Of a stretch of DNA of 64,000 nt, positions 6,123-45,973 are shown one piece after another. The first letter of the stretch is position 1, and each line of letters starts with the position of its first letter. The notes under the pieces were generated by a model. It made no database searches. It was not told where the DNA came from and saw only the letters and a program-made list of their open reading frames with translations. Source of the DNA: an uncultured virus (IMG/VR IMGVR_UViG_3300020044_008989) (lineage: Duplodnaviria; Heunggongvirae; Uroviricota; Caudoviricetes); the IMG/VR virus record IMGVR_UViG_3300020044_008989, positions 84,421 to 148,420 of that record, one strand, 5' to 3'. The translations under genes and the position numbers were made by a program.

Positions 6123-6204
6123 CCTAGTATGGCGTAATTGGTAGCCGCCACCCGCTTAAGACGGGTGATCGAAAGGTGTCTCGGTTCGAGTCCGAGTACT
6201 AGGA
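6123..6204 (+). tRNA. tRNA-Leu (anticodon UAA)
   Basis: Acceptor CCTAGTA/TACTAGG, anticodon arm ACCCG-CTTAAGA-CGGGT, long variable arm, T arm CTCGG-TTCGAGT-CCGAG, discriminator A, no encoded CCA. Confidence 0.92.
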
Positions 6205-6215
6205 CTTTCCCTTAT

Positions 6216-6292
6216 GTTCCTGTAGCTCAATTGTATAGAGCGCCGTCCTTCTAAGACGGGGGTTATAGGTTAGAATCCTATCAGGAACGCCA
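6216..6292 (+). tRNA. tRNA-Arg (anticodon UCU)
   Basis: Acceptor GTTCCTG/CAGGAAC, anticodon arm CCGTC-CTTCTAA-GACGG, T arm ATAGG-TTAGAAT-CCTAT, 3' GCCA. Confidence 0.92.
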
Positions 6293-34432: not shown

Positions 34433-34466
34433 TAGATCATGGGTGGGACTTGCGTTTACTTGATTG

Positions 34467-35483
34467 ATGCCAGCATTATCAATCAGTCAAGACCAGATAT
34501 TAAAAATTAAATCCTTGGGTGAAAAGGGGTTAAGGATTATTGATATTTCTAAGGAAATGGGGCTAAGTCACAGCCTTACAAGCGCGCATTTTCATAAGTT
34601 TTTTCCCAGCAAAAAGAAAAATCCAGACTGGAGTGAGGAAGAAATTGAGCATTTGGAGTCTCTCCTTAAAGAGGGACTTTCTCATTCGGCGATACAAAAG
34701 ATAATAGGAAGAACTCCTTCTGCTATTAGAATTAAGGCCCATCAAATGGGTTTCAAAAGTCAACTTGACCGCGCCATTTATTCTTACGATAAAGACTTCT
34801 GGAACGAACCGAATCCAATTAATTGCGCGCTTGCTGGATTTGTTGCAGCAGATGGTTGTATATCCGTAACTAGCTCTTCTAAGATATTTTTAATTAATTT
34901 GGCAGAAATTGATGCTGGGTATTTGAAAATGTTCGCCCATTTTGTCGGTTCTGACGCCCCATTAAGATACTACGTTGCGCCACATGGCGGCAGAATGGTG
35001 TCTATGCGTTTTACTGCCAACGCTTGGGTTGAACCTCTTGCTGATATTTACAACATCATTCCCGCAAAGACACACAAATTGAAGTTGCCAAACATCCCCT
35101 CTCATTTGATGGATCATTACTTCAAGGGTTTTACTGACGGCGATGGATATTGGGGAGTAGGTAGCAAAGAAAGGTATCTGAATTACTCTGTTGTTGGGGC
35201 TGTCCCAGACGTTATTGAGGCGATTTGCGCTAGGCTCAACGATTTCCCTCAAACGCACGGACCAGTTAAAGTTGGCCGTGATCAAACTGGGTTATATAGA
35301 GTAACAAAAGGCGGACTCGGCGCTGTTGAATTTGCAAAAACACTATACAGTCTCCCATCTCCCTCTCTGTGGCGCAAGCATAAATTAGTTTACGATTTTA
35401 TCGAAAAGAATCCGCGTTACGGCCCGAATATTTTATCGCCGCAAGATCATTACGCATCTCTAGGTTACGAATATGAGCCATAA
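34467..35483 (+). CDS. LAGLIDADG homing endonuclease with N-terminal HTH domains
   Basis: LAGFVAADGCI and YFKGFTDGDG motifs. Confidence 0.88.
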   Translation: MPALSISQDQILKIKSLGEKGLRIIDISKEMGLSHSLTSAHFHKFFPSKKKNPDWSEEEIEHLESLLKEGLSHSAIQKIIGRTPSAIRIKAHQMGFKSQLDRAIYSYDKDFWNEPNPINCALAGFVAADGCISVTSSSKIFLINLAEIDAGYLKMFAHFVGSDAPLRYYVAPHGGRMVSMRFTANAWVEPLADIYNIIPAKTHKLKLPNIPSHLMDHYFKGFTDGDGYWGVGSKERYLNYSVVGAVPDVIEAICARLNDFPQTHGPVKVGRDQTGLYRVTKGGLGAVEFAKTLYSLPSPSLWRKHKLVYDFIEKNPRYGPNILSPQDHYASLGYEYEP

Positions 35484-36127: not shown

Positions 36128-36979
36128 ATGGTGTATATGGCCTTAACAAAACCACCTCAAACAAAAGTCGGGCGCAAGTTTGGAATGCTCTCCCCGCACA
36201 CGGGATTCCACGCGAAAAATAGTCGCGGCAAAACAAAATTGTACTACAAATGTGACTGCGATTGCGGAGCGAAGGATCATGTAGTTTTATCTAGTAATCT
36301 AAGAAGCTCTTCTGGCAGTAATTCTTGTGGATGTAATCAACATACTGGAAACAGGGCTCAAGACCTCACTGGTCAAAAATTCGGAATGTTAACAGCTTTA
36401 AAACCGACCAATAAAAGATACAGGAAAAGCATAGTCTGGTTATTCAAATGTGACTGTGGAACGGAAAAAGAAATGTCTGCTGGAGAGGTTGTCAACTTTA
36501 AAACGGCGTCTTGTGGTTGTAAGAGAAAATACCTAAATCGTGAAGAGGCTGTTTGGGTAAGGACGAAGGCAACTGCGTTGCGTCACTCAGAAGAGTATGG
36601 CAATGTTTCTGATTTAACCTTAGATGAATACGTTGAGGAAACCACTAAAGACTGCTTTTATTGCGGGGCAAAACCAAAAATTCCAGTAATAGACAGAGCC
36701 TCCGATCTTAGATTAGTTAGAAACACGTTGGACAGAATCAATCCACAACTTGGGTATTTAAAAACTAACGTAGTGCCATGTTGCACTAGATGTAATCAGG
36801 CTAAATCTGATATGAGCTATATGCAATGGGTTAATTTTCTCATTGAAGTCCACAAACATTTTATTGAAAGCCAAAAATACCTTCAATTTGCCTTTGGAGA
36901 AAGGGTCGCCGCTAATTCTGAGAAGTTCTTTTTATTTAAAGATTCTCTAGTCCTCAAAACAAAGAAACCCGCCAAGTAG
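36128..36979 (+). CDS. HNH endonuclease with two N-terminal CxCxCG/SCGC repeats
   Basis: GxKFGML...KCDCG...SCGC x2; CFYCG...LDRINP..GY...NVVPCC..CN..K. Confidence 0.88.
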   Translation: MVYMALTKPPQTKVGRKFGMLSPHTGFHAKNSRGKTKLYYKCDCDCGAKDHVVLSSNLRSSSGSNSCGCNQHTGNRAQDLTGQKFGMLTALKPTNKRYRKSIVWLFKCDCGTEKEMSAGEVVNFKTASCGCKRKYLNREEAVWVRTKATALRHSEEYGNVSDLTLDEYVEETTKDCFYCGAKPKIPVIDRASDLRLVRNTLDRINPQLGYLKTNVVPCCTRCNQAKSDMSYMQWVNFLIEVHKHFIESQKYLQFAFGERVAANSEKFFLFKDSLVLKTKKPAK

Positions 36980-40385: not shown

Positions 40386-40844
40386 TTACACCCCACGCTC
40401 TCTGTTGGCTTCGTTACCAAACCCCGCCAAAAAACACATGCTCAGCGTAAACATGATCGCTTGACCAAGGCCGCGTTCCTCACAAGGTTCTACTAAAAAA
40501 CATAGTAATATAAAAATTAAACAGGATATTAAAATACCTATAAATAGCCAATGTTTTGTCGTCGCAAGAGCAAAAAAAGTTTTGACCATACTTCTTGATT
40601 TTAGAAAATTTTGAGCCGCCCTAAATCCTGCTTCGTCAACTATGTTATTTTTAATTTCTTCAATTTTTTGAATTTCTTTTTCCTTGAGGATTTTTTTCTG
40701 ATTAATTTCTTCAAGAGCCGCGTTTTCCCTGTTGAAAGAATCGTCAATGGCAACAATTGCTTCAATAATTGGAGCGTCAAGTTTATCCTCTTGAAGTTTT
40801 GCTGCTTTTTGTTTCGCTCTCTGGATTTGGATTTCTGTGATCAT
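40386..40844 (-). CDS. Membrane protein (coiled coil + 2 TM)
   Basis: Hydrophobic C-terminal helices; own TTGACA-16-TATAAT promoter. Confidence 0.75.
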   Translation of the reverse strand: MITEIQIQRAKQKAAKLQEDKLDAPIIEAIVAIDDSFNRENAALEEINQKKILKEKEIQKIEEIKNNIVDEAGFRAAQNFLKSRSMVKTFFALATTKHWLFIGILISCLIFILLCFLVEPCEERGLGQAIMFTLSMCFLAGFGNEANRERGV

Positions 40845-42003: not shown

Positions 42004-42408
42004 TTAATTTACACCCCTAGCTTTTCTTGCGGCCTCATCTGCTTTTGAATTATTTTGGCGCGGCACCCATTTAAAAACAACTTGGTTGTGATTATTTTTC
42101 GCGGCCAATAAATTTTCCCAAAGGTCTTTATTCTTCACTGGCTGGTTTTTATAGTTCTTCCAGCCATTCTTTAGCCACCCTTTAATATGATGATTTATCC
42201 CTTGAACGACGTATTGAGAGTCAGAAAGAATAACTATATCTTGCGGTTCTCCAAAATGCTTTAAAGCTTTAATCGCCGCCATAAGTTCCATACGGTTGCT
42301 CGTAGTGTCCCATTCCCTACCAGAGTAAGATTTTCCTTCTGTTATGTAAGACCACCCACCCTCCTTTGAAGAGCAATCACACGATCCGTCTGTATTAATA
42401 TAAACCAT
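42004..42408 (-). CDS. rnhA: Ribonuclease HI
   Basis: TDGSC, TSNRMELMAAI.AL, SDSQYV, KNKDLW, FKWV, N..ADEAA. Confidence 0.95.
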   Translation of the reverse strand: MVYINTDGSCDCSSKEGGWSYITEGKSYSGREWDTTSNRMELMAAIKALKHFGEPQDIVILSDSQYVVQGINHHIKGWLKNGWKNYKNQPVKNKDLWENLLAAKNNHNQVVFKWVPRQNNSKADEAARKARGVN

Positions 42409-42424
42409 CCTCTATAATAACTTA

Positions 42425-42878
42425 AAATCAGACTACTAATCTTATTCTCTCTCTTAACCTCTTACCTTTCGGGTAGTCGGGCAGTTTTTTGTCTGCTCTT
42501 AAGAGAAGATACTATTTCAGCCATTGAAGGTTTGGAACGCTTTGTCGGTATAGTTTGGCTTTCGCCAATTTGTATCCTTCGCCTTAATTCTATGCTAGGT
42601 TAACTCATAGAACACTTGGACGCTATTGAAACCGCTGGGTAAGCTGACGAATCGAATAGTCATTGCGCCTCAAGTTGGTTTCTCGCCCCTCGGATTTCTC
42701 CTCCATGCGATACATTGGAATCTTAACTGGGTTCTCCCCACGGCAAACACTTAATTCTGACTAGCCCATCATATTAAATGTCGGCAACTACTGAAACTGC
42801 CCTAAAACAGCGTTGCGGTTGCGTTCGTCCTTTTCAACTGGTCGTAAAAAAGCCTACGACTGGCCTTTGGATATGTCA
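42425..42878 (-). ncRNA. Candidate large structured ncRNA under a late promoter
   Basis: No ORF in the track across ~500 nt; GTGTAA at 42891-42886; multiple hairpins including a GAAA tetraloop. Confidence 0.55.
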
Positions 42879-42935
42879 TAGTATATTACACATGGATCAT
42901 CCTTTTGTGTAAAGAAAATTAAGGAACAAGGAAAA

Positions 42936-43226
42936 ATGAACGCCAAGGAAGAGCTATTGGAACGCCAAAGGTTGCACATTCGCAGTCTTTTTAAAACGCT
43001 GCTCTCAGAAATTGAGGATATTAAGGAGGATTTTGATGAGCGATATAGACTCTTACAGGATCAACTTTCGCCCGAACATTTGCCCATGCTTTACGCCGCA
43101 AACCCTCTCACGAATGACCGTTTCATGAGAATCCGCAAAAGAATCTTGGATGTGGGAAATGATGTTTCGCGGGCGATGGATTCAGAAACAGAGAGGTATG
43201 ATGTGACGTTCGTATTCAAACAATGA
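42936..43226 (+). CDS. Hypothetical late protein
   Basis: GTGTAA at 42907. Confidence 0.75.
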   Translation: MNAKEELLERQRLHIRSLFKTLLSEIEDIKEDFDERYRLLQDQLSPEHLPMLYAANPLTNDRFMRIRKRILDVGNDVSRAMDSETERYDVTFVFKQ

Positions 43227-43994: not shown

Positions 43995-44976
43995 TAACGA
44001 CTACATCTCCTTAATCTCGGAGATTTTTCAAGGATATACCGAGTTGTCTTACAAGGGCGACTCGGTTTTTCTTCGCCATATCAACATCCACGATCAAAAC
44101 AGGCTGTCGAAACTTGTTGAGAAAATTACTGCCGAAAAAATCGCACGCGGCATTCCTTCCGAAAAGGACCGTCTTGACCAACTAAAACAGGATAAAGAAT
44201 GGACTAGCGACGACGAACTAAAGATTAGCGAAATTGAAAACTACGTCAAAAACCTACTCCAGAGCAAGAAAAAGTACGCTCTACCGTCCCAACAAAAAGA
44301 AGCACAGAAACTAATTGACGAAGAAGCGGCCAAACTAAATGATTTGCGGCAAAAAAAACGCTCACTAATCGGCCCAACCGCCGAAGATTTCGCCGCCCGA
44401 AAAGCTAATGAGGAATTTTTGCGCCACTTAATTTATTCTGATGAGAATTGTTCTCGCTTACATTTTTCAGATGAAGAATTTGGCGAAATTGAACCCTCTA
44501 ATCTTAATGGTATCTATGATGGTTATCAGAGGATGATGACGCGGTTTTCGGATGAAAACGTTCAAAAGGCCGTGCTCTGTGACTTTTTTAATATGTATTT
44601 GCCGTTTTGTGAGAAGCCGTGGGATTTTTATGGCGTGCCGCTAATTAAGTCTAGTGTTTTTCAGCAAAAGGTTCTCGTGTATGGGCGAATGTTCCTCAAT
44701 ATTTTTCAGAATGTAGAGAAAATCCCCGACCACATTAGGCAAGATCCGAAAGCGTTACTTGATTTTGCCGACTCTTCTAGAAACAAGGATAAAGCTCAAT
44801 CCAAGAATTCCGCCAAGGAAGGTTCTACATCTTTCGTTATGGGGACTCGGGAAGACGCTGAATACATGGCTGGCGATGGAGTCGAAGTGGGGGATTTGGC
44901 GGAAGAATTGAAAGCCAACAATGGATTTATGGATCAGGAAACTCTACTAAAGCGCCTTGGAGTTCTGACTCATTAA
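43987..44976 (+). CDS. Putative second tail assembly chaperone
   Basis: Helical, upstream of tape measure. Confidence 0.5.
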   Translation: MHDNDYISLISEIFQGYTELSYKGDSVFLRHINIHDQNRLSKLVEKITAEKIARGIPSEKDRLDQLKQDKEWTSDDELKISEIENYVKNLLQSKKKYALPSQQKEAQKLIDEEAAKLNDLRQKKRSLIGPTAEDFAARKANEEFLRHLIYSDENCSRLHFSDEEFGEIEPSNLNGIYDGYQRMMTRFSDENVQKAVLCDFFNMYLPFCEKPWDFYGVPLIKSSVFQQKVLVYGRMFLNIFQNVEKIPDHIRQDPKALLDFADSSRNKDKAQSKNSAKEGSTSFVMGTREDAEYMAGDGVEVGDLAEELKANNGFMDQETLLKRLGVLTH

Positions 44977-45973
44977 CTCTTTTCCATTTCTTGTAAAAGT
45001 CTTTTTTTCCTGTCATTAATGCTTTTATACTATCTCTGCGAACGCCTATGAACCTAGAAAAATGCATTCCAGATTCAAAAAAATAAATTTTCCCGTCTGG
45101 AGACTTTAAATAAATGGATTTTTTTGTCTTATTGCTGATTTTGGCATCGGGAATTTTCCACCCGTTACATGTTCCACCTCGTTTCTTCAAAATAAATAGG
45201 GACGATGGGGCTCTATTTAAAAAGAGACACGCAAGACCATGAGATTCAAAAGTTTTTATTTCTCCAGTTTTTACGTTCTCAAGTTCTATGGGCTTTAGAT
45301 AAAATTTTCTTTTTTTATTTAAACCACTTATCGTCCATCCTTTTGTTTGAGTCATCTTTCCCTTTTTGATTTTAACAATGGCGCTAATATCTGAATTTAT
45401 ATACTCGGCAGCTCTAGTAATATTTTCAAAAACAATCGTTTCTCCAGATATTATATTTGTCATTGAAATTGGATTTCCTCGTCCCGCTTTCTTTTGAATT
45501 TTGAAATTTGAACACTTGCAACTCCATCCCTTGTAAGAGAATTTTTTTCGACCAGTTACTTTGTACAGATAACCTTTATCCAGTTTATCTTCCGAATATC
45601 TCTCTACAAGTTCTGGTATGCTGCAATTAATTTCAATCCCGCGTGACAAATTCAAAAAATCAAATTTTTTCGGTTCCACGATACTCAATCGACCACCAAG
45701 CGTAGAATTAAATCCGTCATGAAAAGAGTTATAATGTTCAATCCAAAAGATTTCTTGTTTATTTAAATGACTCTTTTCACAGAGTTCGATTATTTCAAAT
45801 AAAATCGACTCTTTGCCGTATTTATTATATGAATGTTGCAGGAACTTACTAAAGTGTTTGTTAAGCTTTAAATCGCTAAAGTGCCTCTTTTTTCTACAAA
45901 TCAAGTCAGAAGATTGACCAATGTAACATTTATTATTCCCCGTGCAAGTAATTTTATATATCCCAATATTCAT
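44927..45973 (-). CDS. GIY-YIG homing endonuclease with NUMOD1-like repeats
   Basis: GIYKI...CYIGQS...R...H; repeated F.S...A....GW domains. Confidence 0.93.
   Translation of the reverse strand: MNIGIYKITCTGNNKCYIGQSSDLICRKKRHFSDLKLNKHFSKFLQHSYNKYGKESILFEIIELCEKSHLNKQEIFWIEHYNSFHDGFNSTLGGRLSIVEPKKFDFLNLSRGIEINCSIPELVERYSEDKLDKGYLYKVTGRKKFSYKGWSCKCSNFKIQKKAGRGNPISMTNIISGETIVFENITRAAEYINSDISAIVKIKKGKMTQTKGWTISGLNKKRKFYLKPIELENVKTGEIKTFESHGLACLFLNRAPSSLFILKKRGGTCNGWKIPDAKISNKTKKSIYLKSPDGKIYFFESGMHFSRFIGVRRDSIKALMTGKKDFYKKWKRVNESELQGALVEFPDP

Follow-up and report, generated by a model that had tools for sequence, protein, structure and literature searches.

The window, by which we mean the whole 64-kb stretch of DNA that was analysed, makes up the final 64 kb of an IMG/VR virus record of 148 kb with 91% completeness. 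At positions 42409-42935 it has an intergenic gap of 527 nt, which separates an RNase HI gene on the minus strand (42004-42408, 134 aa) from a gene of 96 aa on the plus strand (42936-43226) that flanks the gap on the opposite side. The first-pass annotation, made from the letters of this DNA, had singled out the gap as the largest ORF-free one of the late region, and the gap does prove to be the largest stretch without an ORF of at least 70 aa beyond approximately 13 kb of the window. The RNase HI gene is well supported by Pfam (RNase_H, 1e-32) and by similarity to the Escherichia coli enzyme (6e-26). Its D-E-D-D active site is intact and the basic protrusion is kept, and the flexible His loop (the region of E. 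coli G123-H127) is deleted.

The locus sits inside the tail module, with minor tail proteins and several homing-endonuclease genes close by. Next along is a gene of 2288 aa whose homologue has a PhageMin_Tail domain and which probably encodes the tape measure protein. Three endonuclease genes were seen within the tail module, at 34464-35483, 36128-36979 and 44927-45973, of the types phrog_4645, HNH and GIY-YIG with NUMOD domains; one of the related loci analysed below (L003) also has a GIY-YIG homologue. We also observed a second variable slot, between genes of 283 aa and 212 aa (window 40386-40844; L002:2084-2882; L035:4534-5583). It is occupied in the window by a 152-aa gene with a perfect TTGACA/TATAAT promoter, in L035 by YopX-domain genes, and in L002 by different content. 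The only tRNAs that ARAGORN predicted in the window are at 6123-6292, 36 kb from the gap.

We compared 11 homologous copies of the gap in total. On the minus strand they share a conserved core of ~415 nt (42464-42878), distinguished by its sequence identity, by a consensus fold that exceeds a shuffled null, and by the lack of any match in Rfam. The size of ~460 nt given at first was therefore too large: the final 55 nt before the RNase HI start are a fast-evolving, purine-rich spacer (42409-42463, minus strand), only 56-64% identical between copies. Compared with L030, whose proteins are 56-75% identical to those of the window, the core (42471-42880) has 87.4% nucleotide identity, versus 59-71% for the flanking genes and 56% for the spacer. 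Compared with the close relative L002, the same values are 99.0% for the core, 85-90% for the flanking genes (with one at 71%) and 64% for the spacer. The core is the best-conserved DNA of the neighbourhood at both levels of divergence, and this ranking, the same at both, argues for selection rather than recent transfer. The five full-length copies collected first fall into groups whose cores are 95-99% identical inside and ~87% across groups.

This conservation is not that of a protein gene. All six frames are closed in the gap, with stop-free runs of 30-60 codons. A 25-codon ORF had been described as the only one on the minus strand; we found there also a 30-codon ORF (42623-42715) and a 20-codon ORF starting with ATG, none of them conserved, and the last is frameshifted in L035, a copy of 96% identity. 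Copies of the RNA differ by 1-nt indels located in loops, and no reading frame is common to them. Searches of the stop-free stretches of the gap against Pfam and PHROG gave no family match (best E-value 0.017). In L057 the gene caller of the source had set a 69-aa ORF within the RNA region (L057:993-1202, minus strand), which the other copies do not have and which is likely a false call. We also considered a decayed protein gene, or a gene written in another genetic code, given that one plus-strand frame is broken by TAA only, seven times. However, both TAA and TGA serve as stops in the neighbouring genes and the indels between copies break the frame, and on these two grounds the recoding reading was dismissed. 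No stop-free stretch matches any family, and decay would not leave a region better conserved than its intact neighbours. We rejected this explanation, which we find barely credible.

Consensus structures were predicted with RNAalifold from 3, 7 and 11 copies. The same core fold was obtained from the 7- and 11-copy runs, and from most of the 3-copy run, with the fold of the 3' third not the same between runs. This core fold comprises a 5' hairpin, a long-range helix closing a multi-helix domain, three long arms, an inner long-range helix, two GNRA hairpins and a set of 3' hairpins. The 11-copy consensus has ~91 pairs, in which 881 of 886 cells are canonical (99.4%), and 8 pairs show double compensatory changes. 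These counts are to be read with an effective sample of ~5-6 lineages, with many changes inherited from common ancestors, and with a structure taken from this very alignment. None of 500 partner shuffles matched the observed score, and slid registers gave 0 compensatory pairs. Column-shuffled alignments refolded with the same program had an energy of -77.7±5.7 versus -94.6 observed (z -2.96) and 1.34±1.12 compensatory pairs versus 7 observed; out of 100 such alignments, none reached either the observed energy or 7 compensatory pairs. Independent pair changes were seen in the 5' hairpin (in L039 and L058 alone), in the hairpin 42613-06/42594-87 (in L057 alone), in one pair of a 13-bp arm (in L037 alone) and in one inner-arm pair (in the window and L002, with L056).

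The same alignment also indicates the strand. Read as minus-strand RNA, 99.4% of the cells are canonical, compared with 90.4% when read as plus-strand RNA, where 9.6% become A-C mismatches. We assigned the RNA to the minus strand because the G-U pairs are canonical only in that reading. Single-sequence folding gave a z-score of -1.72 on the minus strand and -0.49 on the plus strand, weak evidence alone, and for this reason the case rests on the comparison between copies. Projecting substitutions onto single-sequence MFE folds was uninformative: the minus strand had 8 pairs kept and 12 broken, with similar figures for the plus strand, and the strands are indistinguishable by this count, which speaks neither way. 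The strand specificity also bears on whether the region could act as DNA, as a replication origin, a packaging site or a protein-binding array. Its location in a divergent promoter region and its conservation at the nucleotide level would fit such an element, but the compensatory changes, the strand-specific G-U pairs (99.4% versus 90.4%) and the variation within GNRA loops are signatures of RNA. Moreover, the core has no repeats or iterons and is missing from most relatives, and we regard a DNA-level element as very improbable. The early proposal of a large structured non-coding RNA on the minus strand is thus borne out by conservation, compensatory pairs, strand-specific G-U pairs and the lack of a conserved ORF.

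Going from 5' to 3' along the minus strand, the first conserved element is the 5' hairpin GTCGTA/TACGAC (42841-42860), already pointed out in the single sequence. One of its C-G pairs is replaced by U-A in L039 and L058, a compensatory change accompanied by a different loop sequence. A terminator-like AAAGGCC..GGCTTTTTT was also considered at this hairpin and rejected, as L039 replaces the U-run yet keeps GTYGTA/TACRAC. The central domain (42535-42826) is closed by the long-range helix 42826-42821/42540-42535, with a change from C-G to U-A in three copies. A 13-bp hairpin arm (42747-42781) has five variable pairs, all of them kept (A-U/G-C, U-A/C-G and three wobble switches). The helix UCGC/GCGA (42683-42710) encloses an optional GGA-GNRA-UCC hairpin whose loop is GAAA or GCAA and whose stem is one pair longer in L037; in L056 the optional hairpin is cleanly deleted and the enclosing helix is retained. 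Two stacked helices come next (42614-42675; 42675-65/42623-14 and 42658-47/42635-24), again with the variable pairs kept: G-C/A-U in 5 of 10 copies, an adjoining pair that is G-U, G-C or A-U, and an A-U/G-C exchange in the inner helix. A perfect 16-nt complement to the RNA around 42620-42640 was noticed outside the window, on the plus strand of the same genome (G000:C1:36151-36166; ~0.03 expected by chance). The matching RNA segment varies and forms helices, so a role of this match as a target is doubtful.

Further towards the 3' end, an 8-bp hairpin (42587-42613) presents an invariant loop with UUAA and CUAG. Its helix TTCTATG/CATAGAA (42588-42612), correctly recognized in the first-pass annotation, has a G-C to A-U change in L057, and a 1-nt indel is restricted to the loop. 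The element TTGGC-GAAA-GCCAA (42555-42568) is a GNRA tetraloop hairpin: all 11 copies have an unchanged GGC/GCC stem, and the loops are GAAA, GCAA or GUAA, with G and A fixed and only N and R varying. The last conserved hairpin, RCCC-loop-GGGU (42464-42474), keeps its stem with a variable loop (CGAA, UAAA, UGAA or AAAA), has no U-run after it and marks the 3' limit of conservation.

Two other pairings suggested from the single sequence fared less well. GGCA/TGCC (42783-42801) is present in the sequence but outside the consensus fold, where 42816-08/42793-84 take its place; neither segment varies, and the alignment therefore does not discriminate between the pairings. The crossing pairings 42431-36/42473-78 and 42450-57/42499-506 are present in the window, mostly in the variable spacer, and absent in L026, L035 and L039; judged by these copies, the pseudoknot proposed from them is not conserved. 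Separately, two invariant segments were seen to be complementary: GGGCAGUU (42802-42795), which lies in a hairpin loop, and AACUGCCC (42486-42479), which forms the 3' side of a local hairpin. They might make a pseudoknot or pair in an alternative way, with one 8-bp match expected by chance.

Scanning Rfam with cmscan gave no match in the RNA region, either with the whole window at the gathering score or with 42300-43000 and four homologous loci at E<=10, which agrees with the idea of a new class. In particular, the covariance models of ROOL, GOLLD, OLE, raiA and HEARO did not match the region, and for tmRNA, RNase P RNA and phi29 pRNA there was neither a model match nor a tRNA-like end. ARAGORN predicted no tRNA or tmRNA in it. 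Short resemblances to CR-I and CR-V of RNase P were noted by eye and rejected, being in the wrong order and inside local hairpins. Group I and group II introns were rejected as well: there is no Rfam match, and insert-less relatives have two intact divergent genes, with no exon interrupted. A blastn search of the gap against 50,697 phage records returned chance matches only. Exact scans of IMG/VR with four conserved motifs retrieved only the clade described below, the other matches being chance ones of 18-22 nt, and one of these motifs, scanned also in JGI metagenomes and in 185,579 prokaryote genomes, was again found in the clade only. No second copy of the RNA was detected in its own 148-kb genome or in any collected locus. 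The comparison between copies thus argues strongly for a real structured RNA of a new family, which we consider highly probable.

The conservation of the RNA begins directly after a promoter-type motif, GTGTAATAT (42883-42891, minus strand), which is invariant in the 8 of 8 copies that are complete at the 5' end, with variable adjacent bases. Back-to-back GTGTAA motifs had been reported here, at 42891-42886 on the minus strand and at 42907-42912 on the plus strand; we confirmed the two of them, neither of which varies among the copies with a complete 5' end. The opposing motif belongs to the 96-aa gene, is invariant in the homologous loci, and the same back-to-back pair is found in insert-less relatives. 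A second minus-strand GTGTAA (42009-42014) serves as promoter motif for the 156-aa gene that comes next, and its TAA is the stop codon of RNase HI. The raw count of GTGTAA in the window is at chance level (21 versus 21.1 expected). Across the genome (G000), 20 of 39 GTGTAA sites have the ATG of an ORF of at least 60 aa within 40 nt, compared with 7-11% of random positions, and the motif is found before gene starts at 5-7 times the frequency of random positions. The genes that it serves are structural genes and their neighbours. Many starts of structural genes have GTGTAA 8-30 nt upstream (for example, window 42014, 40391, 38194, 45989, 46065 and 57877). Early genes carry TTGCGC or TTGACA, 17 nt, and TATAnT, and have leaderless starts; with GTGTAA at structural genes and sigma-70-like boxes at early genes, the two promoter classes are clearly separate.

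The first-pass annotation had placed the RNA under a phage late promoter, and both the invariance of GTGTAATAT and the genome-wide placement of GTGTAA agree that the RNA starts at a motif of the structural-gene class. From these patterns we infer that GTGTAATAT works as the promoter of the RNA; the promoter class alone would suggest late expression, and the RNA would extend from 42878 to 42464. No intrinsic terminator was found 3' of it. The spacer that follows is 54-59 nt long, with a purine fraction of 0.56-0.73, the exception in length being L002, which has a tandem GGGTAAGAG expansion. There (L002:4397-4480, corresponding to window 42440-42470), the repeat is ~24 nt longer than in the window. 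The spacer ends with a conserved TATTATA box (42413-42419), 5-7 nt before the RNase HI ATG. We also considered a sigma-70-type promoter for RNase HI: the TATTATA box resembles the -10 boxes of early leaderless genes, with no -35 box at the right spacing.

To see how the RNA is distributed, we gathered 23 related viral loci using the neighbouring 329-aa gene as query. In ~20 of them, the 156-aa gene on the minus strand and the 96-aa gene on the plus strand are just 50-60 bp apart, with no RNA and no RNase HI. In the closer insert-less relatives L003, L022 and L024, this short gap consists of back-to-back TTACAC..GTGTAA. RNase HI with the long gap was found, among the 23, in L002 only. In five cassette-less relatives, no RNase_H domain was detected anywhere in their (incomplete) contigs. 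At the exact site of the RNA and RNase HI, L004 has a 182-aa ORF with an HNH-type Cys/His motif (L004:4353-4901, minus strand); with this ORF at the same site, the divergent promoter gap would be a hotspot for varied cargo. A search with the RNase HI protein identified a small clade with 66-94% amino acid identity, after which identity drops to 45-50%. Every member of this clade with retrievable DNA has the same order: the 96-aa gene, ~530 nt, RNase HI and the 156-aa gene. The RNA and RNase HI are together, in the same orientation and with near-constant spacing, in 11 of 11 loci. This comparison shows the RNA and RNase HI to be one accessory cassette that is co-inherited, and the RNase H link suspected from the single sequence holds in the form of strict co-occurrence within that cassette. 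The suggested part in morphogenesis or packaging gained no support.

Direct GTGTAA repeats on the minus strand (42886-91 and 42009-14) delimit the cassette. T4-type phages have promoter-flanked gene cassettes known as PeSL modules, and the cassette described here is similar in being an accessory unit that has a short promoter motif of the phage repeated at its two ends, with precise presence or absence. It differs in the motif and in the cargo, here an RNA gene plus RNase HI. By analogy we infer a PeSL-like recombination mechanism, in which the cassette, placed between two divergent GTGTAA promoters of tail-module genes, would be gained or lost as a unit. The co-occurrence of the RNA and RNase HI may be mere physical linkage in the cassette.

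The main rival explanation of the RNA is that it is an autonomous ornate RNA like ROOL and GOLLD, with a function unrelated to RNase HI, which merely co-resides in the mobile cassette. Such an RNA would be stable and made late, possibly self-assembling or sequestering a host factor. ROOL and GOLLD usually lie beside phage tRNA islands, unlike the RNA described here, whose nearest tRNA genes are 36 kb off. ROOL (RF03087) and GOLLD (RF01998) are large ornate RNAs of phages and prophages, and the level of GOLLD rises late in infection (PMC12286853, PMC5737381). The RNase HI-linked RNA resembles them in being carried by phages, in its length of several hundred nucleotides, in an intricate fold with numerous tetraloops and conserved unpaired stretches, and in having no assigned function; next to the late rise of GOLLD can be set its structural-gene promoter type. 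It has no sequence or structure match to either, is smaller (~415 nt), is tied to RNase HI and has so far been found in one narrow phage clade only. The main text of a survey of 224 motifs names no RNase H-associated motif (PMC5737381). The size, the GNRA loops, the long invariant single-stranded stretches and the high conservation do recall large phage RNAs (PMC12286853), and the palindromes UUAA and CUAG in the invariant loop (42594-42605) could make kissing contacts. The spacer to RNase HI is also without sequence constraint, and such an RNA is missing from most phage RNase HI genes. Against an autonomous RNA are the 11 of 11 loci in which RNase HI accompanies it in the same orientation at near-constant spacing, the lack of a terminator or separate 3' end signal, the distance from tRNA genes, and an independent analogue upstream of RNase HI in other elements. 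We hold this explanation to be a sizeable possibility, short of an even chance.

The analogue was found in SSU5-type phage-plasmids, where an ORF-free block of 564 nt immediately precedes RNase HI and is co-oriented with it (L046:814-1377, L047:814-1377). The core of this block (~330 nt) has ~97% identity when a Klebsiella element is compared with one from E. coli, versus ~80% for the RNase HI gene. On visual inspection, the changes in the first helix of the block seem compensatory. Our literature search found no published description of the block. Like the marine phage RNA, it is a conserved non-coding stretch of 400-560 nt, co-oriented with and directly upstream of RNase HI. The two systems differ in hosts (Enterobacteria for the SSU5-type elements) and genome context, and their RNase HI proteins are ~38-40% identical; nhmmer with a 7-sequence core profile found nothing in L046 and L047 at E<=100. 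On these sequence comparisons, the SSU5-type block is an analogue of the marine phage RNA and not a relative. The presence of a second, unrelated putative RNA at this position in phage-plasmids of enterobacteria speaks against an accidental pairing. Upstream of eight other phage RNase HI genes, the gap is just 10-320 nt, and the pairing with an RNA is therefore not general.

We favour a functional coupling between the RNA and RNase HI, a proposal that we regard as evenly balanced. It is supported by their shared strand, by the lack of a terminator between them, by a spacer whose length of 54-59 nt is kept despite sequence turnover, by the complete D-E-D-D site of the enzyme and by the matching layout in SSU5-type phage-plasmids. 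Transcription of the minus strand would start a few bases past the invariant GTGTAATAT and, without a terminator, the transcript would continue via the 55-nt spacer into the RNase HI gene. The RNA would thus be co-transcribed with RNase HI and would act together with it from the same transcript, presupposing a biochemical link to the enzyme. In the version of the coupling that we prefer, which we put forward only tentatively, the folded transcript would form an RNA:DNA hybrid (R-loop) that is cut by RNase HI, as for the RNA II primer of ColE1.

The RNA II pre-primer of ColE1/pMB1 is a promoter-driven folded transcript whose biology involves RNase H. The RNA described here would likewise be a promoter-driven folded transcript, both being in the range of 400-550 nt, in this case with the RNase HI gene physically attached. 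It has no sequence similarity to RNA II, and it lies in a tail-gene module, has a promoter motif of the structural-gene type and is dispensable in relatives, which together fit a replication origin poorly. We found no promoter-like site and no GTGTAA on the plus strand inside the core that would make an antisense unit of the RNA I type.

Alternatively, the transcript could be a cis-acting leader that sets RNase HI output. As a version of the coupling, we judge this to be rather unlikely, and as a separate explanation, in which the RNA is purely a 5' leader (a riboswitch, a thermosensor or a stability element) controlling RNase HI expression, to be similarly unlikely. The RNA does share the strand of RNase HI and immediately precedes it, without a terminator in between and at a constant distance from the ATG, and it was never found apart from the RNase HI gene. 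However, 415 nt far exceeds known leaders, and the RNA is much better conserved than the gene that it would control. The 54-59 nt before the ORF, where the expression platform would be expected, are the least conserved part and tolerate a tandem-repeat expansion of 24 nt. We found no conserved expression platform by the RNase HI ORF, neither a terminator nor a start-masking helix, and the pairings there are not conserved.

New large structured RNAs are rare and, to our knowledge, each one so far (ribozymes, riboswitches, the ROOL and GOLLD cages) has revealed new biochemistry. The RNA described here is tractable, being compact, extremely well conserved and physically tied to RNase HI. RNA:DNA hybrids are, as far as we know, the only known substrate of RNase H, and the physical tie therefore provides a concrete and testable hypothesis of function, which is still missing for ROOL and GOLLD. 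The locus also illustrates how short phage promoter motifs bound exchangeable cassettes. Considering the marine clade and the SSU5-type phage-plasmids together, phage RNase HI might have acquired large structured RNAs as partners on at least two independent occasions, in the form of a portable R-loop module, a speculation that we rate as distinctly improbable. If true, there would be a portable RNA-plus-RNase-H module in phages, with an R-loop processed by RNase HI that could, for example, prime DNA synthesis or trigger recombination, a mechanism that we know so far only from ColE1-type plasmids and mitochondria.
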